Virus record (IMG/VR): IMGVR_UViG_3300025600_000040
Location: 1-27,719 of that record
Reading direction: 5' to 3' (one strand)
DNA length: 27,719 nt
DNA from: a virus
Lineage: Duplodnaviria > Caudoviricetes
This document shows, in pieces, positions 1 to 19,383 of the stretch; positions within the stretch are counted from its first letter, which is position 1, and each line of letters starts with the position of its first letter. Both the position numbers and the translations under genes were made by a program. The notes beneath the pieces were generated by a model that saw only the letters and a program-made list of their open reading frames with translations, made no database searches and was not told the DNA's origin.

Positions 1-16
1 CGCCCTGATTATAAAG

Positions 17-289
17 CGGAAGTAATGGTACAGCTGAGGAACCAGTAAAACCGTCGTAAGTCTATGAAATATATAGCGAATCGCGTAACACGACCCCGCT
101 AGACCAAACTTCCACTTACCTTCCGAAATTTCGATAATTTCGCCGATTACTTCCGACACCCAAAAATGACTAGCGGGGTCGTGGTACAAAACCAAATCTC
201 TTGAATGCCAATTAATGCCCAATTCAACACAGATTCAAAGAATCTTGAATTTTGCGTCCCGTGGAGCTAAGGAACTTAGCTTAGGAACC
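17..289. repeat. Putative phage left-end repeat array (candidate transposase binding sites)
   Basis: AGCTNAGGAACY at 32-43, 265-276 and 278-289; 17/18-bp inverted repeat 85-102/170-187 (core CACGACCCCGCTAG perfect); 10-bp inverted repeat 17-26/146-155. Non-coding and beyond the last terminator. Confidence 0.65.
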
Positions 290-325
290 GAGAATGCAAA
301 TATCGGTTCAACTGTTACAGAATAG

Positions 326-354
326 AAACGAGAAAAGCCCCCTTTCGGGAGCTT
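326..354 (-). terminator. Intrinsic terminator closing the leftward operon
   Basis: Minus strand reads AAGCTCCC-GAAA-GGGGGCTT followed by TTCTCGTTT, 45 nt past the last leftward ORF. Confidence 0.75.
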
Positions 355-399
355 AGATAAATCAGATGGATTGAAATTTGTTAGCCTATGTTCTATTTC

Positions 400-552
400 C
401 TATGGATTGTAGTCATACTGCCAGCCGTGAGTTCGCCCACAACGCATACAGCGATATTCCCCATATTTTGATCGTCCATTATCCACCGTTCCCTCTGGTA
501 AAAAATCATGTCCGCGCAGAAAACACCAAAGGATTTGTATTTGGTTCTTCAT
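400..552 (-). CDS. Small Cys/His phage protein (DUF1660-like, putative Zn-binding)
   Basis: Motif WCFLRGHDF...CMRCG. ATG at 552 preferred; the ORF is open to 627. Confidence 0.5.
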   Translation of the reverse strand: MKNQIQILWCFLRGHDFLPEGTVDNGRSKYGEYRCMRCGRTHGWQYDYNP

Positions 553-648
553 ACCTTTTCTTGCCCTAGGGAACATGGTTATTGCATTAGCCCAACAGCC
601 AGATTGATCGCATTGAATGTCGGTCAATCGTAGGTTAGGCTTTTCGTT

Positions 649-1323
649 TTATATCCGTTTGAACTCGATTACCCATACCCACGGGTTTTTGTACCAAGAA
701 TCGTCTCCATACAGCCCTTCCCAAGCCTTGATGAATCCAGACCGGTACGTCTTGGTATTCAGATACTGGAATGAGATATTAAGTTCGTTCTGAGGTATGT
801 GCGTATGCTCGCACAATGCAGCACAAGCAACCCCTTCGGCTTGTGCGTCGGCTTCGCTGATGTCGGCTAAGCGTTTTACCTGAACGGAAACAATCTCCAG
901 ATTGATTCGAGAAGCCCAGCGGGGCATATGGATTGATGGCGTCCATTTCCTTTTTGATGTATTCCACCACTTTTGGACTGGCGGTTTTTCGTTTATTGGC
1001 CACTCTCCTAATGTTTGGCATGTTTCGTCAGCCTTAAACTCCACAAGAGCCCTCCAAACATATGGGGAAACAGCGTTGGGGCCGATATTGATTTCATTTC
1101 CAAAGTGTAAAGATGTTTCCCGCACCCAGATCCGATCACCTGGCTGGCCGTAGGGACACGCAATCCATGCGCCCCCATCTACAGCAATGAAGTAATCCTT
1201 CCACTTGATAGCCCCTCCTAGATCTTCTGGTTGAGGCTTAAGTATCCGCCGTGACTGCGTCTTTGTCCCATCCAGAATGGCGCGAACCATCGGTGCCGAG
1301 AATAGAAGTGGACTCTCTTTCAT
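649..1323 (-). CDS. ASCH/PUA-like conserved phage protein
   Basis: Family motifs FSAPMVRAILDGxKTQSRR, CPYGQPGDRIWVRET, PSIHMPRWASRI, DISEADAQAEG, NPWVWVIEF. Confidence 0.85.
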   Translation of the reverse strand: MKESPLLFSAPMVRAILDGTKTQSRRILKPQPEDLGGAIKWKDYFIAVDGGAWIACPYGQPGDRIWVRETSLHFGNEINIGPNAVSPYVWRALVEFKADETCQTLGEWPINEKPPVQKWWNTSKRKWTPSIHMPRWASRINLEIVSVQVKRLADISEADAQAEGVACAALCEHTHIPQNELNISFQYLNTKTYRSGFIKAWEGLYGDDSWYKNPWVWVIEFKRI

Positions 1324-1430
1324 TATTTATACCCCATGGAGATACTTGCAAGTGCTGAAACTGTGACCGCCATTGCCGTTATAAGCAATAGGGAGTAGGT
1401 GAAAATGGCGAATTTTACCCATTTTTCCAT
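1323..1430 (-). CDS. 35-aa single-TM membrane peptide (not in ORF track)
   Basis: MEKWVKFAIFTYSLLLITAMAVTVSALASISMGYK; GAGGT Shine-Dalgarno upstream; TAATG stop/start overlap with the next gene. Confidence 0.7.
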   Translation of the reverse strand: MEKWVKFAIFTYSLLLITAMAVTVSALASISMGYK

Positions 1431-1461
1431 GATTACCTCGTCGAATGTGGAGTGGAATTAA

Positions 1462-1500
1462 TGCGGATCCGGGAGTCGAACCCGGTGAACCATTTCCGCA
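1462..1500 (-). ncRNA. tRNA-like minihelix (acceptor-like stem plus T arm; no D or anticodon arm)
   Basis: TGCGGAA-ATGGTTCA-CCGGG-TTCGACT-CCCGG-ATCCGCA: canonical 5-bp T stem with TTCGANT loop, stacked on a 6/7-bp closing stem. Confidence 0.5.
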
Positions 1501-1505
1501 AAGCG

Positions 1506-1555
1506 CCCCGCACGGCACACACAACCAGAACCAACCAACCGTGCGGGGACTTTTT
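1506..1555. other. 10-bp perfect hairpin with 23-nt loop; T-run follows on + strand (possible + strand terminator)
   Basis: CCCCGCACGG (1506-1515) pairs with CCGTGCGGGG (1539-1548), followed by ACTTTTT. Confidence 0.55.
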
Positions 1556-1590
1556 ACAGAATATCAGCCAAGCCGTGCAAGGACTTTAGA

Positions 1591-2448
1591 TCAGGCCTCC
1601 GCTCCAACACGCAACCATTGCAATACCTCATCCCGTCTCATTTTCCATAGTCCAGTCCATATACTCTGGTAATATGACGTCGCCGTAATGTCGTCCATTT
1701 CGATGGTCTTTAAGAGTACTGGCTCAATCCTTAAGTATGCAGCCCCTAGAATTGCCTGTGCCTGGAAGGTTGCGAGTTCTTCATTACCTGTGAGCATTGT
1801 TTCAATGAGCGGTTTCACCCACTGGAGCTCAAGCATCATGCCGCCAACCTTTGGGTCATCCCATTTGTCGCCGTTTGTGCCTAAGGAAAGGCATTGAATC
1901 TGGTTAAGATTCCAGCCTAGTTTGGATATGCAACCCGCGATACCAATCATGGAAGGGTTATTTGCAATTAGGCCGCCGTCTCCATAGTGCCCGCCCTCGG
2001 CAATTGGGAAATAGGTTGGTGCAGATGCGCTTGCAACGATCGCATCACGTACTAAGGTTCCTTCGCTTGTATCGAAGATCTTAGGACGGCCTTTCTGGAA
2101 GTCGAATGCAGTAATAAATGTGGGGTAACACAATTTATCCATGCGCATGTCGCCAAAATACCGTCGCGCAGCTTCGCGAAGCGCTGTGCCATCATAGCGA
2201 GGCCGTCCAGGATTCAAGCGCCATGCCCATGGTGCTGGAGAAAAGATGCGTGGGCACTCCTTACGGAATATGAGCATGATTTCATCCCATGACATTCCAT
2301 TTGCCGCCAAAGCAACAAGCAAGGCCCCTACTGAAGTACCCGAATAGGCCTTCGCAGGGATTTTGGTTTCTCGTTCCATGTTTGCGAGAAGAGTTGCAGG
2401 ACCAATACCTAACGCTCCGCCTCCATCAATGCTCAATAACAGGTTCAT
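1591..2448 (-). CDS. Patatin-like phospholipase
   Basis: DGGGALG glycine loop, GTSVG nucleophile motif, ASASAPTYF, DGGLIANNP catalytic Asp, LSLGT. Confidence 0.95.
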   Translation of the reverse strand: MNLLLSIDGGGALGIGPATLLANMERETKIPAKAYSGTSVGALLVALAANGMSWDEIMLIFRKECPRIFSPAPWAWRLNPGRPRYDGTALREAARRYFGDMRMDKLCYPTFITAFDFQKGRPKIFDTSEGTLVRDAIVASASAPTYFPIAEGGHYGDGGLIANNPSMIGIAGCISKLGWNLNQIQCLSLGTNGDKWDDPKVGGMMLELQWVKPLIETMLTGNEELATFQAQAILGAAYLRIEPVLLKTIEMDDITATSYYQSIWTGLWKMRRDEVLQWLRVGAEA

Positions 2449-2855
2449 TTTACCTCCGTTGGGTTCGTAATCGTGATTGAAATTGGTTCCTTGCAGTCGA
2501 TTAGTCGGCTAGTGAACTTGGGCGAAGCCGACTTGGAAATGATTTGCGTTGTTACGTTAAGATTGAAGCCGACCAGGATGCATCCGTCCGTATCTGCATC
2601 GGTATTTCCTCCGTGTAGGCGGATTCCTGCGAAGCCAGGCACGGCAAGGATCAGGGGCATAAGTTTCTTGAATCGCGTGGACCATGACACTACGACCTTG
2701 TACTTGCCTTGAGGGATTGCGGTCTTGCCTGGAATCTTTATGCCTGGCGCACGAACGGTATCTTCAAGCGTGTAACAAAAAAATATAGAGTCGATGAACA
2801 GCCGCCCGATTGTCTTCGCGGGATGGAGTTTGATTCGTTCTAAATGGAGGTTCAC
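2445..2855 (-). CDS. DUF5675 family protein, putative endolysin (L,D-transpeptidase-like His/Cys)
   Basis: TIGRL, CYTLED, TAIPQGKY, GIRLHGGNT..DTDGCILVG motifs. Confidence 0.85.
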   Translation of the reverse strand: MNLHLERIKLHPAKTIGRLFIDSIFFCYTLEDTVRAPGIKIPGKTAIPQGKYKVVVSWSTRFKKLMPLILAVPGFAGIRLHGGNTDADTDGCILVGFNLNVTTQIISKSASPKFTSRLIDCKEPISITITNPTEVK

Positions 2856-3136
2856 GATATTCCCTTGACCATGCCAATGATCTTGTCGAAGTTGAAGTAC
2901 ACGCTGAAATTCAGGACTGCGGCAGCGAGCCCGTAGACCAGTTGGTTGACGCCTGAGGTACGGTATCCCCAGACGGCTGCGCCAATATTCAGTGCGATCA
3001 TTGCTACGGCGAACCAGTTGAATCCCGATGGCAGGTGAAGCGCGTCGCTAGATGCAGCGACCATGCATACGGCGATGGCTTCAATGCCGATTGAAATCAG
3101 CAGGATTCCTACGATGATATGGGTGTTCGTCGTCAT
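2852..3136 (-). CDS. Small 3-TM membrane protein, putative holin
   Basis: 94 aa with three hydrophobic segments; ATG at 3136 overlaps the upstream stop (TAATG); directly upstream of DUF5675. Confidence 0.6.
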   Translation of the reverse strand: MTTNTHIIVGILLISIGIEAIAVCMVAASSDALHLPSGFNWFAVAMIALNIGAAVWGYRTSGVNQLVYGLAAAVLNFSVYFNFDKIIGMVKGIS

Positions 3137-3756
3137 TACATTGCCGAGAAGTTGAGGTTTGCGGTGGTCCACTGCTCGGATCCACTTTCAAGGATCTCTT
3201 TGCGCCGTACCTTGAGGTATTGCTTGGTTCCGCGCACCTGCATGCTGTGGCGGATTAGGTCCATAGCCTCTTTCCAGCGGGCATCTTTGATTTCATAGCC
3301 GAGAAGTCGGACGATCATGCCTTTATTGACGTTGCCCTTCTTATCAAGGTTGAATGCCTGGCGCACGATCATGGCGATCTCATCGCGGGACCCTTCCGAC
3401 CATTCGGTGAGGCATGCGTCGATCTTGGTCTTGGCAAGACTGAGGCGCTCATCAAAGTCAATCAGGTCATTGATTGCGATATCCACCTGCTTGTCGCCCG
3501 AGAAATTCGTAAGGGTCAGATTTCCTTTGCCTTCCCGCTTGGCATTACACTCTTTTTCGAGACCGACCAGGTAGGATTCAATGCGGTCGAGAACGGCCAC
3601 TTTTGCTTTCTGCATCTGTGCTTCGAGCTTGTCGACTATTGCGTGGATGTCTTCCACGGCCTTGTCGCGCTGACGTTCGATGGTTGGGATATACTTCTGT
3701 GGTATGCCTTTTCCGCGTGGGTCGAGCCAGTTGCCTTTTTCGTCTTTCTTAGCCAT
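3136..3756 (-). CDS. DUF3164 family Mu-like phage protein
   Basis: WLDPRG..IP, KGNLTLTNFSG, FDERL..AK.KID.CL.EWSEG, AF..DKKG, W.EAM..I motifs. Confidence 0.88.
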   Translation of the reverse strand: MAKKDEKGNWLDPRGKGIPQKYIPTIERQRDKAVEDIHAIVDKLEAQMQKAKVAVLDRIESYLVGLEKECNAKREGKGNLTLTNFSGDKQVDIAINDLIDFDERLSLAKTKIDACLTEWSEGSRDEIAMIVRQAFNLDKKGNVNKGMIVRLLGYEIKDARWKEAMDLIRHSMQVRGTKQYLKVRRKEILESGSEQWTTANLNFSAM

Positions 3757-4210
3757 GAGAGGCCTCCGTTTGTGGTTTGTTTGTGACTTTGATGGATTGG
3801 ATTGCTTTAAGGATTGGCCCTACCTGCGTGGGGCTGATCCATTCGATGGAAGGGATTGAGAACCGGTTCTTCAAAAACTTCTGGAACGCTGCTTGCTTCT
3901 CGGGGAGCGTGTGCATGTAAGAGATCTCGACAAAGGCCGCTTCGAGCATGCGGATCTGCCTGGGACTGGCAAAGCCGTCGCCTCGGGCACTCAAGTCTTC
4001 GTAGCGCTTCGTCGCCTTCGCTGGTGCGGAGGTCTTGGGGCACATAGAGAGAAGGTCGGCACACAAAGTGCGGCACTGCAAGCCCGTGAGATCCTTACTC
4101 GATGCAGCTCCAAACTTGTCTTTGAGCATGTCGCGGTACTGGTCGTCGCTCATTCCTACGCGATTCACCAAGGCGTGTATTGAGCGGGTGTATGGTGTTG
4201 TCGCGCTCAT
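3749..4210 (-). CDS. gemA: GemA / Mu gp16 (DUF1018) family regulator
   Basis: IH...GMSDDQYRDML...G..SSKDLT and Q.RM.EA motifs; located downstream of MuB. Confidence 0.88.
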   Translation of the reverse strand: MSATTPYTRSIHALVNRVGMSDDQYRDMLKDKFGAASSKDLTGLQCRTLCADLLSMCPKTSAPAKATKRYEDLSARGDGFASPRQIRMLEAAFVEISYMHTLPEKQAAFQKFLKNRFSIPSIEWISPTQVGPILKAIQSIKVTNKPQTEASHG

Positions 4211-5097
4211 GCTGCAACCAGCATTTCAGAAGCTTTCTGCACGATCTCAGGAGTGAGGTCGGACAGGCTGTTTCTGCTGAGAAGATCTGAACACCACATG
4301 AGCAGGAAGGACAAGACTCGGGCATTGCGTCCGCAGGCCTTGCGTAGTGCGGTCAGTGTTGCTTTGTCTACGTCGGGCTGGTCTTGAGCAATGAGTGCAT
4401 CCATGTCAGTATCTGTTAATCCTGATACGCGGCGCGGTATGAACAGGCGTCGGTACAGCTGGGCATAGTGGGTTGGGTCTCCCTTAAGGTTCTTCTCGAG
4501 GCGAGGCATTCCGCAAAGGGCAATGCCTACCTTTGCTTTGTCGTTCACGCGGCGAATTAATTCCAGTGCCCGATAGGGCAACTGCTCGGCCTCGTCAATG
4601 ATCACCAGGCGTCCGGATCCGCGTAGTTTGTTCACCACGCGGTTAAACAAATCGTGAAGGCTGCCACGGGTATCAAGGTTCACTGCATCGCAGATGTCAA
4701 TGAATAGGGCTCGGGCGGTATAGCCGGGATCCGCTTCGATCAGTATCACCGCAGGATGCCTCTTTGCATAGGCCTGCAAGGCTGTTGTTTTACCCACTCC
4801 TGAGTCGCCCGTGAGCATCCCCATGGATCGTTTTTGCAACACCAGGGTGCAATAGGCATGGATTGCCTTGTAGGTGCTTGTCTCGATGGCGTCGCGGTCT
4901 CCGGTGTCCTGCTGCTCCCTCGCATTGGCCAGGTAGTCGGCGACGAGCTTGTCGATTTCGGCGACATCGCCCTCATACTTGCCTTTGAGCCAGTAGTTCA
5001 ATGCCGAGGCGCTGCGACCAATGGATTTGGCAACAGCGGACTGCGTGGTATTGGCTGATTCGATATGGGAGATCAGTTTGATTTGTAGAGTTTCCAT
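4207..5097 (-). CDS. muB: MuB-like AAA+ transposition ATPase with N-terminal HTH
   Basis: N-terminal HTH (TQSAVAKSIGRSASALNYWLKGKY), Walker A GDSGVGKT, Walker B IIDEAE; adjacent to the transposase. Confidence 0.95.
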   Translation of the reverse strand: METLQIKLISHIESANTTQSAVAKSIGRSASALNYWLKGKYEGDVAEIDKLVADYLANAREQQDTGDRDAIETSTYKAIHAYCTLVLQKRSMGMLTGDSGVGKTTALQAYAKRHPAVILIEADPGYTARALFIDICDAVNLDTRGSLHDLFNRVVNKLRGSGRLVIIDEAEQLPYRALELIRRVNDKAKVGIALCGMPRLEKNLKGDPTHYAQLYRRLFIPRRVSGLTDTDMDALIAQDQPDVDKATLTALRKACGRNARVLSFLLMWCSDLLSRNSLSDLTPEIVQKASEMLVAA

Positions 5098-5105
5098 AAT
5101 ATTCC

Positions 5106-7064
5106 TTATGCCTGTTTTGCGAGCGGAAGTTCATCCGGCCACACGATCAGGATTGGTTTGTTGTCTTCTGGTTTTACGAACTGTGAGAGATCTATTTTGC
5201 CGATTTTGGCTTCGGTGGCTAGGGTCTTCGCGTCATGGTCGTGGCGGGTCAATTGTGTCGCTCCTGTACATGGGTTCAGAATATTCGGGATCCCAAGTGC
5301 TGTATTAGTGGCATGCAGGATTTCGCGTGCCTGGTCCTTGGTCGCATCGGGTACCATTTCACGAACCATCTTCTCGGCACGCTTGGTGCGTGCAATGTTC
5401 TCTGCAAGCTGGGTCTTTCCGACCGCATCGCCATGGCTCACCAAGGCCTCCACGGCCTGCCAGAGCATTGCCTCGCCCATGAGAACCCCGTCTGCTCCAT
5501 GCACCCAGGCAATGCGCAAGTCTTCGGGGTCGTAGCGCAAGACCACGTCGCGACCCTGGTTGACTGGCATGAACTCAGCCCAATACCAGCACTGCAGTTC
5601 GCGCAGGTAGAATCCTTGGCGGCGGATCTTTCCGGCTGCGGTGCGGGTGGTAAGCATGCTTGCCGTTTCTTGGGTAACGCGACGCATTTCGGGGCGCTGG
5701 ACTATCAGTTCGTTCCACAGGGCCGAGCGGGAAAGGCCATGGTGATTCTTTCCCTGGCACTTGATCGCTGAGAACGTCTCGGCCATGAACTGATTGGCGA
5801 GTATCTGAAAGTCTTCCCAGGCGATGTACTTGCCGCTCTTGAGTACCTTCTTCAAAATCTCCGGCTTCTCAAGGACATTGCCGCCTTTGTAGCTGCTGAA
5901 TGCCTTGTCGAAGTAGCCTTTGATCGTCAGGAAGTTGCGTTCAATGATCTTGGACTGGGCGCGTTGCACAATGGCGAAATGGATCTTGATGTTCAGGCGG
6001 ACGGCGAGGGATTCAGCACGTTGCGTATCCTCACAAATGCGATGGCCGCGAGTCTGGCCGGAAAAGTCTTTATTGCGGTACTCGCGACCATTGTCGAGGT
6101 ACAGTTCATCGGGAAGGCCGTATTTTTCAATGCCGTTGCGGATGGCACGCAGCGTGTTGTCTGTGCTGGGTGCCGATGTATGCAGGTGCCAGCCCATGGG
6201 CATGCTGGTGCGCATATCCACAAAAAGGGTGATGTAACAGGTCTGCGGAGCCTCTTGCCCGTTGATTTTCACGAACACATCCCAGGTACGGGTATCGCCT
6301 ACCCATACTGAACCTGCAGGCATGGTATAGACTCGCTCGATATGTACCCCGTGGGCGTCGTTGTAGCGCTTTCGCCCCTTCCGGGCATACGCAAGCAATG
6401 CCTCGTCAAGTTCGCGGTTCACGCGGCGCTGGAAGGCGTGTACGCTGGGGAATGATTCACGATCCGTCACCAGTCCATCATCCATGCATTTACCTAGGGC
6501 AATTTCGCGGGCAACCGGCACCGAAGGGGCACTGGGGCGCAGGTATGCCCATTTGAAAGCTTCCCACATGGAGTCACTGACGGTGGAACTCACGATCCGT
6601 GTCGGAGCAAGCAGGCTCAGGCGCCCAAACTCGGTGATCTGGGCACGGGTACGGTAGATGCTTTGCGCGCTCACTGCCATCTCGGGGTTCGAGCGGCTCC
6701 AGCTCTGCGCCCAGGCCTCCAGTTCCATACGCCCTGATACGCCTTCACAGCGTGACAGAATCTGCGACCACTTGTCGGCATGGCGTTTGGCGCGGGAGTT
6801 GGCCTTGGCGTACACGTTGGCGTAAGCGTCGGTATCCTCTTCGATGACCTTCACTTCAGGGATCTCGGGAAGGTTCTCGATCTGGTAACGAACAACGGCA
6901 TCATGCGGAAGGCTTGCGAGGCGTACTTCCATGCTCTTGCCTGTTGCACCAGATACAATGCGGGTTTCCCACATGCGCTTGCCCTTGACCACGGCGCGAG
7001 GCGTGATATCCATGGTCTTGGCGGCATCTTCGGTACTGATCCAAAGGTTCATGATGCCACTCAT
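5106..7064 (-). CDS. muA: MuA-like DDE transposase
   Basis: N-terminal Mu-type DNA-binding domain; catalytic WVGDT, YLDNGREY, SKIIERNF; C-terminal RYDPEDL. Confidence 0.95.
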   Translation of the reverse strand: MSGIMNLWISTEDAAKTMDITPRAVVKGKRMWETRIVSGATGKSMEVRLASLPHDAVVRYQIENLPEIPEVKVIEEDTDAYANVYAKANSRAKRHADKWSQILSRCEGVSGRMELEAWAQSWSRSNPEMAVSAQSIYRTRAQITEFGRLSLLAPTRIVSSTVSDSMWEAFKWAYLRPSAPSVPVAREIALGKCMDDGLVTDRESFPSVHAFQRRVNRELDEALLAYARKGRKRYNDAHGVHIERVYTMPAGSVWVGDTRTWDVFVKINGQEAPQTCYITLFVDMRTSMPMGWHLHTSAPSTDNTLRAIRNGIEKYGLPDELYLDNGREYRNKDFSGQTRGHRICEDTQRAESLAVRLNIKIHFAIVQRAQSKIIERNFLTIKGYFDKAFSSYKGGNVLEKPEILKKVLKSGKYIAWEDFQILANQFMAETFSAIKCQGKNHHGLSRSALWNELIVQRPEMRRVTQETASMLTTRTAAGKIRRQGFYLRELQCWYWAEFMPVNQGRDVVLRYDPEDLRIAWVHGADGVLMGEAMLWQAVEALVSHGDAVGKTQLAENIARTKRAEKMVREMVPDATKDQAREILHATNTALGIPNILNPCTGATQLTRHDHDAKTLATEAKIGKIDLSQFVKPEDNKPILIVWPDELPLAKQA

Positions 7065-7237
7065 GGGGCCAGCTCCTTTGACTTGCCGATTGGCTTGCCG
7101 ATGATGAGGCGTGCGAGCTCATCCCAGCAGTCCTTGGCGTGGCATACTGGAAATCCATTCAATGTCCTGCTCATTGGCGCGTTATAGCAGACACAGCACC
7201 AAAGGCGGGGAGAGTTTGAATACGGAAAGCCCTTCAT
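7061..7237 (-). CDS. 58-aa Cys-rich protein (not in ORF track)
   Basis: MKGFPYSNSPRLWCCVCYNAP...PVCHAKDCW...; ATGA overlaps at both ends. Confidence 0.7.
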   Translation of the reverse strand: MKGFPYSNSPRLWCCVCYNAPMSRTLNGFPVCHAKDCWDELARLIIGKPIGKSKELAP

Positions 7238-9563: not shown

Positions 9564-10034
9564 TTGTCTGAACGTGTAAAGAAATTTGCGAAAGATCGCT
9601 ATGGAAGCATGAGTGGGCTCGCTAGAGAGATGGGCATTAGTCCCCAGCACTTGCACGCCTACCTTAGTGGAGGGAAAACTTGGGGTGCAGCTTTCACGAA
9701 TAAGCTTGCTTCTGCAGGCTTTGAAACTCAGGACGTTCAAAGTAATTCAACCCCAGTAGTAAGTGCGCTGAAGTTGGATTCTGAAGAAATCCCACCAATT
9801 GACTTGGCGGGTATTGTCGAGCTTACGCGTACTCAGTTTCCACGCCTTGCGCAGCTTCTTGGCGTGCCTCAAGAGCTGATGCAAGATTGGTATGCACGTC
9901 GGTCAGCGCCAAGCCCTACGCAGGTAGCTCGACTGTTTAATCTGACTATTGCTCTTGCCCTTGCTGCGCAATCAGCGAACCATGAAAAGAAGATTGCCGA
10001 GTCCTATGGCGAACAAGCCAGGAAGTCGGCTTGA
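9564..10034 (+). CDS. Phage repressor-like protein with two XRE-type HTH domains
   Basis: HTH1 MSGLAREMGISPQHLHAYLSG; HTH2 FPRLAQLLGVPQELMQDWYARRSAP. TTG at 9564 with AGGTG upstream; ORF is open from 9486. Confidence 0.75.
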   Translation: MSERVKKFAKDRYGSMSGLAREMGISPQHLHAYLSGGKTWGAAFTNKLASAGFETQDVQSNSTPVVSALKLDSEEIPPIDLAGIVELTRTQFPRLAQLLGVPQELMQDWYARRSAPSPTQVARLFNLTIALALAAQSANHEKKIAESYGEQARKSA

Positions 10035-10062
10035 AATTTGTTTGAAGAGTGAATTAACAATA
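9989..10062 (+). repeat. 74-bp direct repeat, copy 1 (repressor 3' end plus spacer)
   Basis: 66/74 identical, ungapped, to 11072-11145. Confidence 0.92.
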
Positions 10063-10077
10063 GACCCGGGAGAGGGA

Positions 10078-10611
10078 GTGAAAATCGAAAAATACATGTG
10101 TGTTATAGGCTTGCTTGTTCTGCTTGTTTCATGTAGTGACTCACCAAAGAAAGAATCCGCAGCGCCTATAACCGAAAATACTGCAACAAGTACTCCAGCA
10201 GAAAGCAATGTGCCACCTCCACAGAACCTTCGTAATTCAATGTCATATCCATCAGGATTGCAAACTCAGAAGGCGAATAAATTGCTTTCTCGATTAGGCA
10301 TTCGTGCGAATACTGAATATGAGTATATCGCGTTTTCTGATTTTAAAACGGCTCATCAGATTGGTGCTGGAGGGCAATTTGAATACCTAAAATGTGCGAT
10401 TCCACATGATACTACGAATCCTGGGAGTATCTATGAAGCTTCATCGCAAATGAAGGATATGGGAACATATTGGGAAGTCTATTACTATAAGGATCTTAAC
10501 CAAACATGGATGACTGAGGTGAAAAATAGCCCTGATCGTTCGACGTCTTCGGTTAGGATTTTGAAGGTGGTAAAAGGAAGGGATCCCGACCTCAATATAT
10601 TGTGGGAATAA
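10078..10611 (+). CDS. Lipoprotein 1, unknown function
   Basis: GTG start after GGAGAGGGA; signal peptide ending LVS-C; S/T/P-rich linker. Confidence 0.85.
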   Translation: MKIEKYMCVIGLLVLLVSCSDSPKKESAAPITENTATSTPAESNVPPPQNLRNSMSYPSGLQTQKANKLLSRLGIRANTEYEYIAFSDFKTAHQIGAGGQFEYLKCAIPHDTTNPGSIYEASSQMKDMGTYWEVYYYKDLNQTWMTEVKNSPDRSTSSVRILKVVKGRDPDLNILWE

Positions 10612-10649
10612 TGCTTCAATTGATTTAAGCAATCAAGATAGGAGAGGGA

Positions 10650-11060
10650 ATGAAAATCGAAAAAATTTTGTTTGGGATAAGCATTGTTGCGATGCTTGTT
10701 TCTTGTGGTGACTCACCAAAAAAAGAGGTAGTGGTGCCACCTGAATATACAGGAACATTTCAGAAAGCGTCTATTGCATGTCCAGGCTTCAATCCTTCCG
10801 CAAGTGAAATCACAATTGGCGCACCGACAGTCGGTGGAATCTACTATGATGGAGAATTCCACTATGCACTAAAAGGTTTTTCCATTGAGATCACTGGACT
10901 GCTGAGCTATGCTCCAACGGCTCATGGCAATCATTGCGAATACTATTTGACGCAAAATGAAGATCGTGTAGTCACGATTAAAGATGCATGCGCTTCACTG
11001 TGTAAGGGTGAAGCGATAAATACAGAAGGCAATAATTTTGAAGCGAAGCTTGCAAAGTGA
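10650..11060 (+). CDS. Lipoprotein 2, unknown function (four Cys in mature part)
   Basis: MKIEK...MLVS-CGDSPKKE; leader paralogous to lipoprotein 1 (10641-10726 vs 10069-10154). Confidence 0.87.
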   Translation: MKIEKILFGISIVAMLVSCGDSPKKEVVVPPEYTGTFQKASIACPGFNPSASEITIGAPTVGGIYYDGEFHYALKGFSIEITGLLSYAPTAHGNHCEYYLTQNEDRVVTIKDACASLCKGEAINTEGNNFEAKLAK

Positions 11061-11702: not shown

Positions 11703-12179
11703 TTATTGTAACTCAAATGGCGACACGATTACGCGTGGTTCCACATAAACAGGGCGCGTCTTCTTGGTTGTTTTATCTAGGCACATTACCCATGTTCCTT
11801 CCGCAGACGATGGCGAGAATAGCCCGTTCGGATCAGCCTGTGGCATTGTTCCACCCTGTGCGATTTCCTTCGCTGGATTCGTATACTGCGTGGCTGCAGG
11901 GATTCCGTATCCGATAGAGACGCAAAGCAGCTGCCCGACTTTGCCTGTCTGCTCAGAAACCAAGTAGGTGTATGTAGTCAAACCATCCTGGTCTCGCAGT
12001 TCAATAATATCCTTGAGCAGCTTCCGCTCCCGAAAATTCTTAATTGCAGGCATCCCCGTTTGTGCCGTTCCTTCGGCAAGGGTTTTTTCTTGTTGCATCC
12101 TCTGGACTTGATCGGACGATGGCTCTAGGCACGATACTAGCATCATGGATGCAAGCATTAGGACGATGATCTTGTTCAT
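11703..12179 (-). CDS. Phage lipoprotein, unknown function
   Basis: Lipobox LVS-C; motifs SIGYGIPAATQYTNP and PQADPNGLFSPSSAEGTWVMC. Confidence 0.85.
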   Translation of the reverse strand: MNKIIVLMLASMMLVSCLEPSSDQVQRMQQEKTLAEGTAQTGMPAIKNFRERKLLKDIIELRDQDGLTTYTYLVSEQTGKVGQLLCVSIGYGIPAATQYTNPAKEIAQGGTMPQADPNGLFSPSSAEGTWVMCLDKTTKKTRPVYVEPRVIVSPFELQ

Positions 12180-12490
12180 GGTAACTCCTTGATGAATTGA
12201 TTGAGGTCTGTTGGAATTTCTGATTCTGGAATGCTTAAGGCTCTGTGCCGGATGATGGATGCCAGCGCGGCCTTGTGGTCTTTATTGGCTTGGATGTAAT
12301 CAAAGCGCATGTTTTCAAGTTCCTGTACCATGCCGTCACGGAACGCTTTTGATTGCTCGAAGGTTTCTCTGCGGACTTGCTCCCGTTTTGGCGCAAAGTA
12401 ACTGGAAACGGCAAGATCGTTGAATGCCAGAATCCACCCAATGCCAAGTAGCACAAGAATGATGAGCGGAAGGATTAATAGTTGTTTCAT
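12176..12490 (-). CDS. N-terminal TM plus helical protein, coupled to the lipoprotein
   Basis: Hydrophobic residues 4-23, charged helical remainder, GGAG Shine-Dalgarno, ATGA overlap. Confidence 0.85.
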   Translation of the reverse strand: MKQLLILPLIILVLLGIGWILAFNDLAVSSYFAPKREQVRRETFEQSKAFRDGMVQELENMRFDYIQANKDHKAALASIIRHRALSIPESEIPTDLNQFIKELP

Positions 12491-14329: not shown

Positions 14330-14435
14330 AGAGGGAGATCATTAGGCGCACCGGCTGTTTGATTGATCTCTCAGGGTTGTTTATGTGGTGCACATAGCCA
14401 ACCGACCGGGCCCCGTCAAGGGGCCTCCTTTTTTT
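14330..14435 (+). ncRNA. Putative structured small RNA convergent on the MuF-nuclease gene
   Basis: Hairpin 14333-14372, hairpin 14375-14403, loop-loop complementarity GCACC/GGTGC, terminator 14408-14435. Confidence 0.6.
14408..14435 (+). terminator. Intrinsic terminator overlapping the MuF stop codon on the opposite strand
   Basis: GGGCCCC-GTCAA-GGGGCCT-CC-TTTTTTT. Confidence 0.8.
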
Positions 14436-15651
14436 GGTGGAGCAGGAATCCAGTACGCTGCTGATTAAATTCCTTCATATTCATACGGTATGCTGTCCAG
14501 CTGATGAATTCTCCTTTCTGCGCATCGAATACGATGATCACCGGCTTGCTCTCCCCAGCCTCCTGAAACAGCTTAAAGAACCTTGCGCGTATGGCAACCT
14601 TCCCCGTGGCGCTTTCCATGAACAACAGGCGTATTTCATCTGGATTCACCATTGCCGAGATGATTGCATTGAGTTGCGCTTGGCGGTCAACTTTTGCAAC
14701 GTTATTGAAGTGCCGGGCAAGCGACTGTGAATCTACATTGAACGCGTAGGTGAAGTCACCCATTGGAATCATGACCTTCCGGGTAGGGATCTGTTCATCT
14801 AGTTTCTTGTCGATAGCATCCTTGATTTCCTGTTCAGTCGAAAGAATTGCCTTGGCTGGTTTGGGCAGTGGATGAATCGGCAGAGTTGGTTTTTCTGGAT
14901 TATTGAGAAATCCTTGTTGTGGAATTTCTGTCCATACCTTCGCGGCAACAGGAGGGTTCGGCTTTCCGTTCGCTGCATCGCCTGGGTTGTAGTTCCATCC
15001 AGGATCAATGCCTTTCTGGATTTGCGTGACCTCACCCGTCGTGCGGTCGATATGTTCTACTGTTGGGTCTGAGGGTGCCTTGTCGGATATGGGGATCCCG
15101 AGCGCCCTTGCATCATACTTGCTGACGGCTTCTTTACGGCACCTGCAGCGCCAACCGTTCGGCGGGGTATGGGTACTCCACCAAGGATCATCGAGCGGAA
15201 GAATGGTATTGTGCCAGGCGCGGTGCTCGGGACGTTCCAGTCCATCCATCATGCAGATGTAGCGACCGTATGGAAACAACTTGCGGTGCACGGGATCCTG
15301 CATCTGCCGTTCGCGCCCTGCGGCGTGAGCTACAGCGAGGTTGGTGCTGTAGATGATCTCGGAGCGCCAGTTGCGCGTGCCATTATGCTGCCATCCTGTC
15401 TTCGCGACGATGGAGTCAAAGTCCTTGCGGAACTGCTGCAAGGTCTTGCCTTCGGCGATTGCGCCATCCACGGCCTTGCGGAAGTCGCAAAGAATATCTT
15501 CGCGCATCACGCCCGCCACAACGAACGCCTTGGCATGCATCTGGCCCTGCAAGTCCCGCCACGACTCGGTGGGGAGGTTCACCTTCGCGCGGAAATAGTC
15601 CACGGCCTCCTTGAACGGAGTCGTTCCAAGCTGAACAGTGGCCTTGGTCAT
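14416..15651 (-). CDS. MuF (gpF/gp30) minor head protein with C-terminal PBECR2-like nuclease domain
   Basis: MuF motifs AFVVAG, RPEH..WH, PPNGWRCRC, IDPGW.YNPG; Pro-rich linker; C-terminal NPDEI...WTAY...QRTG.LL pattern recalled for PBECR2. Confidence 0.88.
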   Translation of the reverse strand: MTKATVQLGTTPFKEAVDYFRAKVNLPTESWRDLQGQMHAKAFVVAGVMREDILCDFRKAVDGAIAEGKTLQQFRKDFDSIVAKTGWQHNGTRNWRSEIIYSTNLAVAHAAGRERQMQDPVHRKLFPYGRYICMMDGLERPEHRAWHNTILPLDDPWWSTHTPPNGWRCRCRKEAVSKYDARALGIPISDKAPSDPTVEHIDRTTGEVTQIQKGIDPGWNYNPGDAANGKPNPPVAAKVWTEIPQQGFLNNPEKPTLPIHPLPKPAKAILSTEQEIKDAIDKKLDEQIPTRKVMIPMGDFTYAFNVDSQSLARHFNNVAKVDRQAQLNAIISAMVNPDEIRLLFMESATGKVAIRARFFKLFQEAGESKPVIIVFDAQKGEFISWTAYRMNMKEFNQQRTGFLLHQKKEAP

Positions 15652-17093
15652 TTCAGAAGTCCGGACTTCTGCAGAACTTCGTAGCGACCAGCAAGGTCAG
15701 CGACAAGGAACGCCTGCGCCATCGCTGGTGCGATCGCATCCGTGTTGATGTTTCCAAAAGTGCTGAGGAGCTGGTCGCGGACATCCTCAAGGCTCGTCGC
15801 TTTTTCAACCAGAGTCTTGAGCGGGGCGAATAATTCAGTCCTTGCGGCGGCCTCTGCCAGCTGGATGGAGAGCGCATCGATTCCGGTAGGCTGTGGAGCA
15901 TCACCTGCGGCAAGATTGACGGGTGCTAAAGGTGTTGCGGTTTGTGGAGTACTCATCACCATGTGCGTCGGTGAAAATCCGTAGGTATCGATAAAGTACT
16001 GTGGCGTGAAGCGGGCTCCGCTTTGTGTGAGTTTCAGGTCACGTTCGGTGAGGTTTACTTTCAAATCCTGTGGCGCGACAAGGCTCCACCAAGTACGGTC
16101 ACTGGTGCCGAAGTTCAAATCCCACATCCAACCAACCAGCGTATTCATAACCCCTTGAATGAGCGTTGAATCATCCTTGGCAATGTCCTGGCTTACCTTG
16201 TAATGGGTCTCGGTGGCAGCAAGGCTTCCAGAGCTTCCAATGTCTGCGGAAAGCGTCTGTCCTAGGATTGCAATGCTTATCTGCTTGTCAGCCCAGCGGG
16301 TCAGCCCTTCGTAAATATCAGCACTCGAACCTTTGCCTGCCGCTTCCTTCAGTTCCACGGATCCGTCGTTGGGGATCACGCCGCACGCATCCTGAATCAA
16401 TCCATGCAGGGATTCCAGAAACTCTTCACGGTCGGCGGGTGGTGTGTTGCGAGGGTATTTTCCGATTGCGAACACGCCCGCATACTTTTCGACGAAGCGC
16501 ATCCAGAACTTGACCCCTCCACGTTTGAACGTGACAGGCCAGAAGCATTTGCTGAGGTAGCCTTCTCCGTAGGGGTTATCAAAGGTTGGGTCGTTCTGCA
16601 CTACCAGAAAACGGTAGTCAGGTACCGGGACACCCTGCGGGTTCGCTTGCGTGATCATGAGCAGCTGGCCGTCCGATGCACGGAACGCAAAATTATCCTG
16701 CGGCTTGCCGACGATCTTGCTTGGCCAGATTCGGCTACCGTTTGTTTCCCAACAGACTTCCAGAACGGCATAACCCAGGGCGGTGGCCTTCATTGCCTCC
16801 GTGATCATTCCACGGATGTCAATTTTCCATAGTACGTCTTCAATTTCCTTGCGTGGACCATCGGCGGCTTCGGAAAGAGCCCATGGGCAGTTGCGCACGG
16901 CACCGATACGTTTTTGGGATTCCCCGTACAGGTGGGCGTCGGTGCGCAGGTTCCTGTAAATTTCGGATATTTTCCCCATGCGGCGAAGAACCGAATCGGG
17001 ATTAGGAAGATTTCCAATGGCATTGAAACTGATGGCTGCACGGGTGAGTATTTCGTCTCCGGTGAGCTGTGTCGTGTCTTTTTTCTTCTTCAT
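15648..17093 (-). CDS. Portal protein (Mu gp29, DUF935)
   Basis: GYAVLEVCW, NPYGEG, W.RF.EKY, GKYP, ISIAILGQTL motifs; GAGG before ATG 17093. Confidence 0.93.
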   Translation of the reverse strand: MKKKKDTTQLTGDEILTRAAISFNAIGNLPNPDSVLRRMGKISEIYRNLRTDAHLYGESQKRIGAVRNCPWALSEAADGPRKEIEDVLWKIDIRGMITEAMKATALGYAVLEVCWETNGSRIWPSKIVGKPQDNFAFRASDGQLLMITQANPQGVPVPDYRFLVVQNDPTFDNPYGEGYLSKCFWPVTFKRGGVKFWMRFVEKYAGVFAIGKYPRNTPPADREEFLESLHGLIQDACGVIPNDGSVELKEAAGKGSSADIYEGLTRWADKQISIAILGQTLSADIGSSGSLAATETHYKVSQDIAKDDSTLIQGVMNTLVGWMWDLNFGTSDRTWWSLVAPQDLKVNLTERDLKLTQSGARFTPQYFIDTYGFSPTHMVMSTPQTATPLAPVNLAAGDAPQPTGIDALSIQLAEAAARTELFAPLKTLVEKATSLEDVRDQLLSTFGNINTDAIAPAMAQAFLVADLAGRYEVLQKSGLLK

Positions 17094-18722: not shown

Positions 18723-19126
18723 TAGACGAGACCCATGCGTTGCTTGATGCGCGTATGCATATCACCATCGGCTTTCTTCTTGGGCTTTTCTAATTCTTTG
18801 CTCTTCTCGTAATCATCGCTGCGCTGTATGGCGACGACCAGCTGGCGCATGGCATTGATCTGGTGTGCGTCGATAATGCCCCTCTCAATATTTTCCTTCA
18901 GGAACTTGGATGCCGTATGTGCAAGCGAATAAAGGTTCTCGTTCAGTTTCGTTTTATCAAATCCGGTAAGGTCCCTAGCTTCATCCCATTTCTCGGCCTT
19001 GCGCCAATCGAGAAGCGTGCGTTCACTGATCCCCGCCTTGATCGCGGTAGCCTTGCAGGAAAGCCCGGAGACGACGTAGAGTTCCCGTGCCACAAGCTTC
19101 TTGGTGTCATCGGCTTGGCGGCTCAT
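18722..19126 (-). CDS. HTH protein, putative terminase small subunit (DUF1804-like)
   Basis: ARELYV..G.S....A.KAGISERTL.DW....KWD; directly upstream of the large terminase. Confidence 0.8.
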   Translation of the reverse strand: MSRQADDTKKLVARELYVVSGLSCKATAIKAGISERTLLDWRKAEKWDEARDLTGFDKTKLNENLYSLAHTASKFLKENIERGIIDAHQINAMRQLVVAIQRSDDYEKSKELEKPKKKADGDMHTRIKQRMGLV

Positions 19127-19383
19127 TCGTCATCCCTTAACTTACGGGACTGGCAACAGGCGCTAACGAGTTTGATCTGCGCCATGGAGCGAGCTTCGGA
19201 TAGTTCTAACGTTTTTTCCCACTTTTGCATTACATCATTTTGGCTCTTGGCCATTTGTACGATTAGCGATGCCTGGGTGGCTGCAGCGCGTTTTTCTGAG
19301 TTGATGTACAGGAACACCAGCATGATGGATGTAATGACTGTGATGCCATAACGTTCGACGTATTTGAGTACGATTTGATTCAT
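19123..19383 (-). CDS. TM plus coiled-coil protein (position of Mu gp25; holin-like role possible)
   Basis: Single hydrophobic segment then helical region; ATGA overlap with next gene; start may be 19389. Confidence 0.65.
   Translation of the reverse strand: MNQIVLKYVERYGITVITSIMLVFLYINSEKRAAATQASLIVQMAKSQNDVMQKWEKTLELSEARSMAQIKLVSACCQSRKLRDDE

Follow-up and report, generated by a model that had tools for sequence, protein, structure and literature searches.

A predicted patatin-like lipase in the spanin position of a Mu-like phage lysis cassette

How phages without a spanin open the outer membrane of their host is largely unexplained, and about 15% of the phages of diderm hosts have no recognizable spanin (10.1101/515445). 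The question is raised by the virus record IMGVR_UViG_3300025600_000040, whose entire length of 27,719 bases was analyzed (the window). Pfam and PHROGs searches of its 45 open reading frames (ORFs) identified a Mu-like myophage, approximately 52% complete and stopping after the tape measure gene, in which genes for a small membrane protein, a DUF5675 protein and a patatin follow the transposition genes. The host likely belongs to the Fibrobacterota. Comparison with collinear relatives leads us to favor, with moderate confidence, a patatin lipase that carries out the outer-membrane step in place of a spanin.

The lysis slot of the window and its relatives

The cassette genes, the gene that anchors the slot and the gene used for the phage tree are as follows:

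1591..2448, minus strand: predicted patatin-like lipid acyl hydrolase, 285 aa (Pfam PF01734)
2445..2855, minus strand: DUF5675, predicted endolysin (Pfam PF18925, E 4e-28)
2852..3136, minus strand: 94-aa membrane protein, candidate holin (hydropathy)
3136..3756, minus strand: DUF3164, last early gene and slot anchor in all 25 phages (Pfam E 4e-49)
5106..7064, minus strand: MuA-type transposase, source of the phage tree (Pfam/PHROGs scans)

The original prediction, made from the DNA letters, had the three cassette genes coupled by overlapping stop and start codons to each other and to DUF3164, GemA and MuB, and both coordinates and Pfam agree with it. The junctions read TAATG between DUF3164 and the membrane protein, GTGA between the membrane protein and DUF5675, and ATGA between DUF5675 and the patatin; GemA and MuB overlap likewise, and MuA ends 9 nt before MuB.

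Scans with MuA returned 27 loci. Removing L380, which ends before the slot, and two duplicates (L369, L370 and L371 are identical and counted once) and adding the window gave 25 distinct phages, that is, 24 relatives and the window; a related Mu-like phage with DUF5675 in the same place, L314, was found by a DUF5675 scan. The gene order of the window was kept in the nine relative records that were mapped. After DUF3164, 20 of the 25 phages have the three-transmembrane (3-TM) gene or a related 45-52-aa one, three have another small TM gene, and for two none is listed. The endolysin slot, window included, holds Amidase_2 in 13 phages (assigned by Pfam in 11 and by near-identity in 2), DUF5675 in 6, M15_4 in 3, GH24 in 1 and an unrecognized candidate in 2; among the relatives alone, an endolysin was recognized in 22 of 24 slots. 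No lysis PHROG was found behind the tape measure gene in 47 ORFs of five relatives. Together with the slot contents, this indicates that the slot is the group's lysis locus and that DUF5675 stands in for known endolysins, and we are highly confident that the window contains a real lysis cassette.

The third gene of the slot encodes DUF1353 in 19 of the 25 phages, a spanin-like membrane protein in five and a patatin in one, the window; none has two of them. Record-wide searches found DUF1353 in 19/26 records and the spanin-like profile in 6/26 (by construction), never together, and detected a patatin in 0/21 relatives' records and 0/5 others. The distribution of the three kinds of third gene over the MuA tree requires at least 4 changes, and the starred sister pairs are the window (patatin) with L369 (spanin-like), and L393 (DUF1353) with L395 (lipobox plus C-terminal TM).

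Judged from the sequences, three comparisons (window/L369, L372/L373 and L393/L395) come close to controlled swaps. L369 is the closest relative (79% MuA identity; 72% DNA identity over window positions 2874-7064); it diverges from the window over 298-2873 and re-joins it at 13-297. Where the window has DUF5675 and the patatin, the L369 insert holds a 64-aa ORF, an 86-aa holin-like TM protein, a 158-aa spanin-like protein with an N-terminal TM, a coil and a C-terminal TM, and a GH24 lysozyme. L372 and L373 have 65%-identical M15 genes, followed by a spanin-like gene in the former and by DUF1353 in the latter, and L393 and L395 have three upstream genes of 51-70% identity, followed by DUF1353 in L393 and by the lipobox protein in L395. 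DUF5675 itself is followed by a spanin-like gene in L391, by DUF1353 in L378 and by the patatin in the window. The DUF5675-patatin pair was likely acquired as a unit through module exchange, in place of an ancestral block of holin-like, spanin-like and lysozyme genes. The G+C content at third codon positions (GC3) of the patatin (48.6%) and of DUF5675 (56.2%), compared with 62-68% in DUF3164, gemA, MuB and MuA, is as expected for an exchanged module.

The spanin-like proteins, 135-240 aa long, begin with a hydrophobic anchor, continue with a long polar stretch and finish in a TM segment or a beta-rich part. DUF1353 (PF07087) scored above the Pfam cut-off in 15 of 16 scanned proteins; those of L378 and L314 fell below it and were assigned by the Atlas. 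A member of this family, TtaP, was shown to be a phospholipase A2 (PLA2) with catalytic H70, D71 and D85 (PMC11525133). The same His-Asp...Asp set occurs in the slot DUF1353 proteins of the 19 relatives, being kept in 12/12 aligned ones with the TtaP spacing within one residue. The fold of TtaP is unrelated to that of patatin, so that two unrelated lipase folds alternate with a spanin-like protein; TtaP is not known to act in phage lysis. In three near-complete DUF1353 records, a crude TM/lipobox scan found no other spanin-like gene. With a group-specific DUF1353 profile, 1/64 general DUF5675 loci and none of the patatin loci gave a match, which says little. The proposal that a phospholipase occupies the spanin position is thus supported by synteny in collinear relatives.

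The predicted holin, endolysin and lipase

The 94-aa protein has, by hydropathy, hydrophobic segments at residues 7 and 39 and a weak one at residue 63, giving two to three TM segments. It fits the minimum expected of a holin, being small, having at least one TM helix and overlapping DUF5675. Homologues in L369 and L372 are 56-59% identical, that of L372 matching Holin_SPP1 below the cut-off (E 0.063), and the C-terminal half is related to the TM protein of 45-52 aa that a further 17 relatives have in this slot. In both L369 and L372, the 3-TM gene is accompanied by a second, holin-like gene (76-86 aa) that is absent from the window. Of the holin assignment in the original prediction, the small TM protein coupled to DUF5675 is confirmed, while the label itself is unproven, given the two genes of L369 and L372; we regard the protein as a candidate holin on sequence features.

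For DUF5675, an AlphaFold 2 (AF2) model was built from 61 sequences (pLDDT 88.9). In VIA, the top 20 matches all had the L,D-transpeptidase fold (Z 8.9-4.7) and the next unrelated one scored 3.8; the best were Pgp2 (Z 8.9, rmsd 3.0, 111 residues aligned), Tlde1a (7.8) and Csd6 (7.5). Foldseek ranked the same families, with E values above 0.07 and no significant match. Residues H81, G83, G91 and C92 were invariant in 61/61 sequences. DUF5675 thus has the fold and the His/Cys motif in common with the L,D-transpeptidase-fold enzymes Tlde1a, Pgp2, Csd6 and YkuD and with the C82-like LysPd160, although identity to the solved structures is 10-17%. A 2026 preprint places DUF5675 among the C82-like lysins from structure (10.64898/2026.04.11.717860). 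Homologues occur in 167 annotated phage records, and the crAss-like ones are labeled L,D-carboxypeptidase/transpeptidase, some adjoining a holin. Because of this modeled fold and its substitution for amidase, M15 and GH24 in one slot, DUF5675 is a predicted endolysin. In the sister pair L393/L395, which is thus without a confirmed endolysin, the endolysin position is held by a protein of about 140 aa (L393 13881-14435, L395 14033-14620), possibly a new endolysin family, with what we take to be an M15-like motif and no Pfam, pairwise or PDB match.

The patatin matched PF01734 with 76 bits against a cut-off of 27.7 (E 6e-21) and has neither a signal peptide nor a TM segment. Its AF2 model (pLDDT 93.7) matched CapV, CapE and patatin-17 in Foldseek at 22-24% identity and a TM-score of about 0.8 (E 1e-19 for patatin-17). 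A single-protein viral scan gave 0 matches for it, whereas profile scans did give matches. Its clade is formed with 31 relatives at about 35-67% identity. The catalytic dyad, Ser39 (GTSVG) and Asp157 (DGG), was invariant in 32/32 clade sequences (alignment A1). The glycine loop reads DGGGALG; this loop motif, GGGxR/K, normally carries a basic residue, at whose position the window has Leu. The patatin had been described as intact, which is true of the dyad but not of the loop. The Leu loop argues for a predicted acyl hydrolase that may not share the head-group preference of a PLA2.

In NCBIfam, PADLOC, PDB-sequence and Foldseek comparisons, the proteins that the patatin matches best are phospholipases of the antiphage signaling system based on cyclic oligonucleotides (CBASS), with whose CapV and CapE it shares the patatin fold and the Ser-Asp dyad (PMC12480259). 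These matches bear on a second proposal of the original prediction, a captured CapV-like effector responding to host signals (here, activation by host cyclic dinucleotides), which we now consider very improbable, since it fails on family score, tree position and cyclic GMP-AMP (cGAMP) contacts. On NCBIfam NF041079 the patatin scored 126.6 bits against a cut-off of 200 and seven clade relatives 115-170, compared with 338-370 for 18 loci labeled CapV-like in this analysis; in PADLOC the scores were 156 versus 352. In a FastTree phylogeny, the clade stood apart from these 18 high-scoring proteins and from five ankyrin-flanked patatins labeled, again by us, WO-type. The essential cGAMP contacts described for AbCapV are F147, K149, D159, E207 and R279 (PMC12480259), four of which could be mapped, R279 lying outside the aligned stretch. 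In the profile alignment of the clade, F147 is replaced by Ile/Val and K149 by Asp, D159 follows an 8-residue loop that is absent, and E207 is Gly/Ala/Ser in 41/41 sequences versus Glu in 18/18 CapV-like ones. The loop Arg is present in 18/18 CapV-like and 5/5 WO-type sequences, by contrast with Leu in the patatin clade, which is also about 70 aa shorter than the CapV-like proteins. Finally, no nucleotide cyclase was found in the 45 window ORFs (Pfam) or in 11 of them (PADLOC), the neighbors of the patatin being DUF5675 and phrog_874.

Outside the Mu-like group, four of the nine non-redundant clade loci adjoin an endolysin (L002, GH24; L045, GH108; L210, a weak CHAP; L126, CHAP, together with an HP1 holin and a papain-like peptidase); L046 adjoins a papain-like peptidase and L125 is cut off upstream. 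At L126 (5417-8438) and L046 (274-2310), the papain-family (C1) peptidase gene lies directly before the clade patatin, that of L126 within a holin-CHAP-Rz-like cassette. Among patatin loci in general, 21/88 non-redundant ones have a same-strand Pfam peptidoglycan hydrolase within -2000/+1500 bases, three of these hydrolases being SLT and maybe tail enzymes. In a leave-one-out distance control, 15/17 endolysin matches at 78 viral patatin loci lay within 2 kb versus 30% expected; the loci are not independent, and the p value of 1e-6 is inflated by about 9 related prophages among the viral matches. This control gave 0 matches at 64 genome loci and missed the CHAP of L126. In a prophage group that includes L017, L044 and L252, the order is endolysin, lipoprotein, patatin, holin-like gene, terminase, so that there the patatin accompanies a spanin-like lipoprotein. 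Judged by gene neighborhood, patatins are recurrent lysis-cassette genes, in some cases added to and in others replacing spanin-like genes. Two observations concern related loci: L017 and L235 are near-identical prophage patatin cassettes with exchanged GH24 and GH108 catalytic domains, and at L012 (3796-4161) a Tlde1-domain gene (L,D-transpeptidase fold) lies directly before a phage patatin.

A fixed DUF5675-patatin module was rejected, as no patatin lay within 5 kb of viral DUF5675 at 80 loci (64 non-redundant) and only L221/L223 showed the linkage among 287 patatin loci. The original prediction had named sporadic linkage as an outcome that would count against it, and the pairing is indeed sporadic. 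The nearest homologues, P0002 and P0120, both listed with a longest contig of 68,520 bases, hint at a second copy of the pair.

Weighing the readings

In the mechanism that we propose, the small TM protein would accumulate in the inner membrane and open it. The DUF5675 Cys/His peptidase would then escape and cut stem peptides or cross-links of the peptidoglycan, and the patatin would deacylate inner-membrane lipids and then, reaching them via the lesions, outer-membrane lipids until rupture. Since neither enzyme has an export signal, both would need the inner-membrane lesion. Fibrobacter succinogenes S85 is reportedly described as lacking lipopolysaccharide (LPS) in the title of a study from 2001 (Vinogradov 2001); a lipase could plausibly attack an outer membrane that has no LPS, which is a rationale rather than a result. 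The original prediction also expected unusual timing control from the placement among early genes. The placement is real, with no gap between DUF3164 and the cassette in the window, but it is not special, as the whole group has its lysis genes directly after DUF3164. No minus-strand sigma-70 promoter was found inside the operon (2 sites versus 5.1 expected) in a scan that activator-dependent late promoters would escape. An internal Mor-dependent promoter and holin-level timing are two options for the delay in expression.

A number of findings weigh against the replacement of a spanin by a lipase. Several concern the spanin-like class, which is a hydropathy and topology label defined after the absence of DUF1353 had been seen; the Fisher p of 0.002 for the alternation, on 11 collapsed units, therefore overstates the case, and the five proteins that profile A9 finds are those from which it was made. 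A u-spanin has a lipoprotein signal and a C-terminal TM, and only L395 has a lipobox with a C-terminal TM: in L369 and L391 a TM lies at either terminus and no lipobox is clear, and in L372 and L377 an N-terminal TM is combined with a beta-rich C-terminus. No spanin family matched the proteins of L369 and L372 (Pfam, PHROG) or those of L377, L391 and L395 (Pfam only). Most relatives are fragments, with 3/26 records at least 90% complete. DUF1353 carries the PHROG label "tail assembly chaperone", 15 of the 19 DUF1353 phages fall in one shallow clade, and deletion of ttaP in Salmonella caused no envelope defect (PMC11525133). At 14/19 DUF1353 loci, but not in the window, a 35-61-aa cationic hydrophobic ORF overlaps the end of DUF1353. 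It resembles the disruptin of phage phiKT (PMC9636201, 10.1101/515445) and could, as a disruptin, carry out the outer-membrane step itself, in which case DUF1353 may assist it or be secondary. Examples of these ORFs, candidate disruptins or second holins, are L375 15259-15381, L378 14841-14948 and L379 15331-15516, with 11 more.

The window proteins themselves add to these points. The 94-aa protein matched no holin family in Pfam or PHROGs, and its best Atlas score was 0.77. Leu occupies the loop position in 30/32 (alignment A1) and 39/41 clade sequences, and R/K in none; because R21A nearly inactivates AbCapV (PMC12480259), substrate or activity may differ from PLA2. Patatins occur beside spanin-like genes in L126 (Rz-like PHROG, E 0.004) and L044 (lipobox plus C-terminal TM), so the presence of a patatin does not imply that a spanin has been replaced. 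Three of the nine clade loci (L205, L211 and L051) have no lysis neighbor. The sporadic pairing with DUF5675 also counts here, although it does not refute a lysis role, since what the patatin follows is the lysis slot, with several endolysin families, and not DUF5675.

Some of these findings are also accommodated by a lysis gene that acts at the inner membrane, the patatin being a helper or timer of the holin that replaces the lost second holin-like gene of L369, and the outer membrane failing without a dedicated factor. The patatin, having no export signal, would meet the inner membrane first, activated CapV is described as killing via membrane hydrolysis (PMC12480259), and in L126 and L044 patatins co-occur with spanin-like genes. 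We nevertheless think this rather unlikely: in L393/L395 and L372/L373 it is the spanin-like gene, and not the small TM gene, with which DUF1353 alternates, and with an unregulated lipase in the cytoplasm the latent period would become shorter. Slightly less probable again is an accessory passenger that travels with DUF5675 and is dispensable for lysis, serving in lipid salvage or the clearing of membrane debris from virions, or being a moron. Such a passenger would suit the clade loci without lysis neighbors, the 0/80 viral DUF5675 loci with a patatin, the altered glycine loop and the silent ttaP deletion. Yet the window patatin is translationally coupled to the endolysin and has a strong ribosome-binding site, no spanin-like or disruptin-like ORF is left in its slot, and two unrelated lipase folds occur in that slot. 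The outer-membrane role in place of a spanin is, on balance, the reading that we retain.

Genome setting and significance

From the left end, the window carries the transposition genes (transcribed toward that end), then genes for a repressor, dam and mor, a G-F-portal-terminase block in inverted orientation, and the head and tail genes as far as the tape measure gene. Its remaining mapped features are as follows:

11..297, no strand assigned: phage end region, where L369 re-aligns at 76% after the swapped module
1462..1548, minus strand: structured non-coding element just after the cassette, with a GC-rich hairpin and a tRNA T-arm-like hairpin
3749..4210, minus strand: GemA (family scan)
4207..5097, minus strand: MuB-type transposition ATPase (Pfam/PHROGs scans)

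The left end is a phage end, as L369 re-aligns over 13-297 and then has other genes, and a contig of run X1 differs before position 11; the cassette lies approximately 1.3 kb from this region. Positions 11-7200 occur in single contigs of two runs with 0 differences, and both runs, which are peat metagenomes, may be the source of the DNA. The named hosts of two protein clusters from the slot are Fibrobacter (rumen-type relatives).

No second endolysin was recognized among the 45 ORFs of this approximately 52% complete record, and, as the original prediction stated, none is recognizable ahead of the terminase, where there is just an 86-aa ORF with one TM. Such a position is not fixed in all Mu-like phages, since KS10 has its lysis genes on the other side of the repressor. 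The 86-aa ORF (19123-19383, minus strand), a holin-like candidate ahead of the small terminase, also has a coiled coil and is present in G002. A pair of overlapping genes for a TM protein (12176-12490) and a lipoprotein (11703-12179), both on the minus strand, has the look of an i/o-spanin pair. It was rejected as such because Clostridium phage phi3626, which infects a host without an outer membrane, has a full-length homologue 39.5% identical to the lipoprotein, and because neither gene was detected in nine mapped relatives. The lipoprotein is also 68% identical to a protein of cyanophage S-SRM01, with homologues in Clostridium and Vibrio phages. Elsewhere in the window, a Mu F-like head protein (14416-15651, minus strand) has a C-terminal PBECR2 nuclease-like domain (polymorphic-toxin-like MuF), and two lipoprotein-like genes after the repressor (9949-11060, plus strand), in a region variable among relatives, are possible superinfection-exclusion morons. 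In another Mu-like phage of the Fibrobacter group, L401 (G013), a reverse transcriptase gene (197-1357) lies behind the tail-fiber genes, possibly part of a diversity-generating retroelement.

Copies of the non-coding element occur in the window, in L372 (15904-16025, plus strand) and in L369 (about 15630-15675, plus strand), and a search of viral_contigs gave 2 matches other than the window; the element was found in just these three phages. A GC-rich hairpin with a G/U-rich loop is followed by an acceptor-stem and T-arm-like structure; both parts are present in L372, whose copy has an extra hairpin and resembles a tRNA without a D arm, and the first hairpin alone in L369. The fold z score, computed for the window copy only, was -3.07, and Rfam and ARAGORN gave zero matches for 1462-1548. 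The element could serve in processing or stability.

The mycobacteriophage LysB, an alpha/beta-hydrolase esterase acting on mycolyl-arabinogalactan, is a lipolytic third lysis component directed at an outer layer, the kind of role proposed here for the window patatin; the window protein has the patatin fold and belongs to a probable Fibrobacterota phage. In lambda S-R-Rz/Rz1 and in the T1 u-spanin and phiKT disruptin systems (PMC9636201, 10.1101/515445), a membrane protein, a peptidoglycan hydrolase and a third factor form one coupled cassette, as in the window, where, by contrast, the third factor is a predicted soluble lipase rather than a membrane-fusion protein or cationic peptide, and where the cassette comes after the transposition genes, close to the end of the genome. 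The putative patatin lytic cassette of the Wolbachia phage WO (PMC9203015) likewise joins a patatin to a small holin-like membrane protein, with lysis proposed. There, however, the patatin takes the place of an endolysin (in Undavirus, a GH108), and no peptidoglycan has been detected in the host, whereas the window has an endolysin candidate and its patatin alternates with spanin-like genes. The WO cassette has an ankyrin gene and no endolysin and lies beside the tail module; the window has no ankyrin gene and its cassette lies beside the transposition genes, so it does not qualify as a WO-type cassette. Its patatin also belongs to a separate clade (about 28% identity to the WO-type, which keep the loop Arg). 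In the literature searched, which leaves most subscription journals outside, we found no report of a lipase-for-spanin exchange, and patatin, phage and spanin together led to phage WO only. What is new here is the swap within one collinear phage group, the precedents being a hypothesis (WO) or concerning another envelope (LysB).

The phage group amounts to a natural swap experiment. Because the same endolysin family is followed by a spanin-like protein, a DUF1353 PLA2 or a patatin, the replacement of a spanin by a lipase becomes directly testable, and the series suggests a job for the unassigned phage families DUF5675 and DUF1353. It also calls for caution with phage patatins that are scored as CBASS effectors, since these may be lysis genes. 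Tentatively, and with slightly less than even confidence, we propose that lipases form a further class of phage outer-membrane disruptor, interchangeable with spanins; that two unrelated lipase folds, patatin and DUF1353/PLA2, have repeatedly taken the place of a unimolecular spanin-like protein in a single slot of Mu-like phages of LPS-lacking Fibrobacterota; and that the Leu-loop clade may be an acyl hydrolase dedicated to lysis and adapted to outer-membrane lipids other than LPS.

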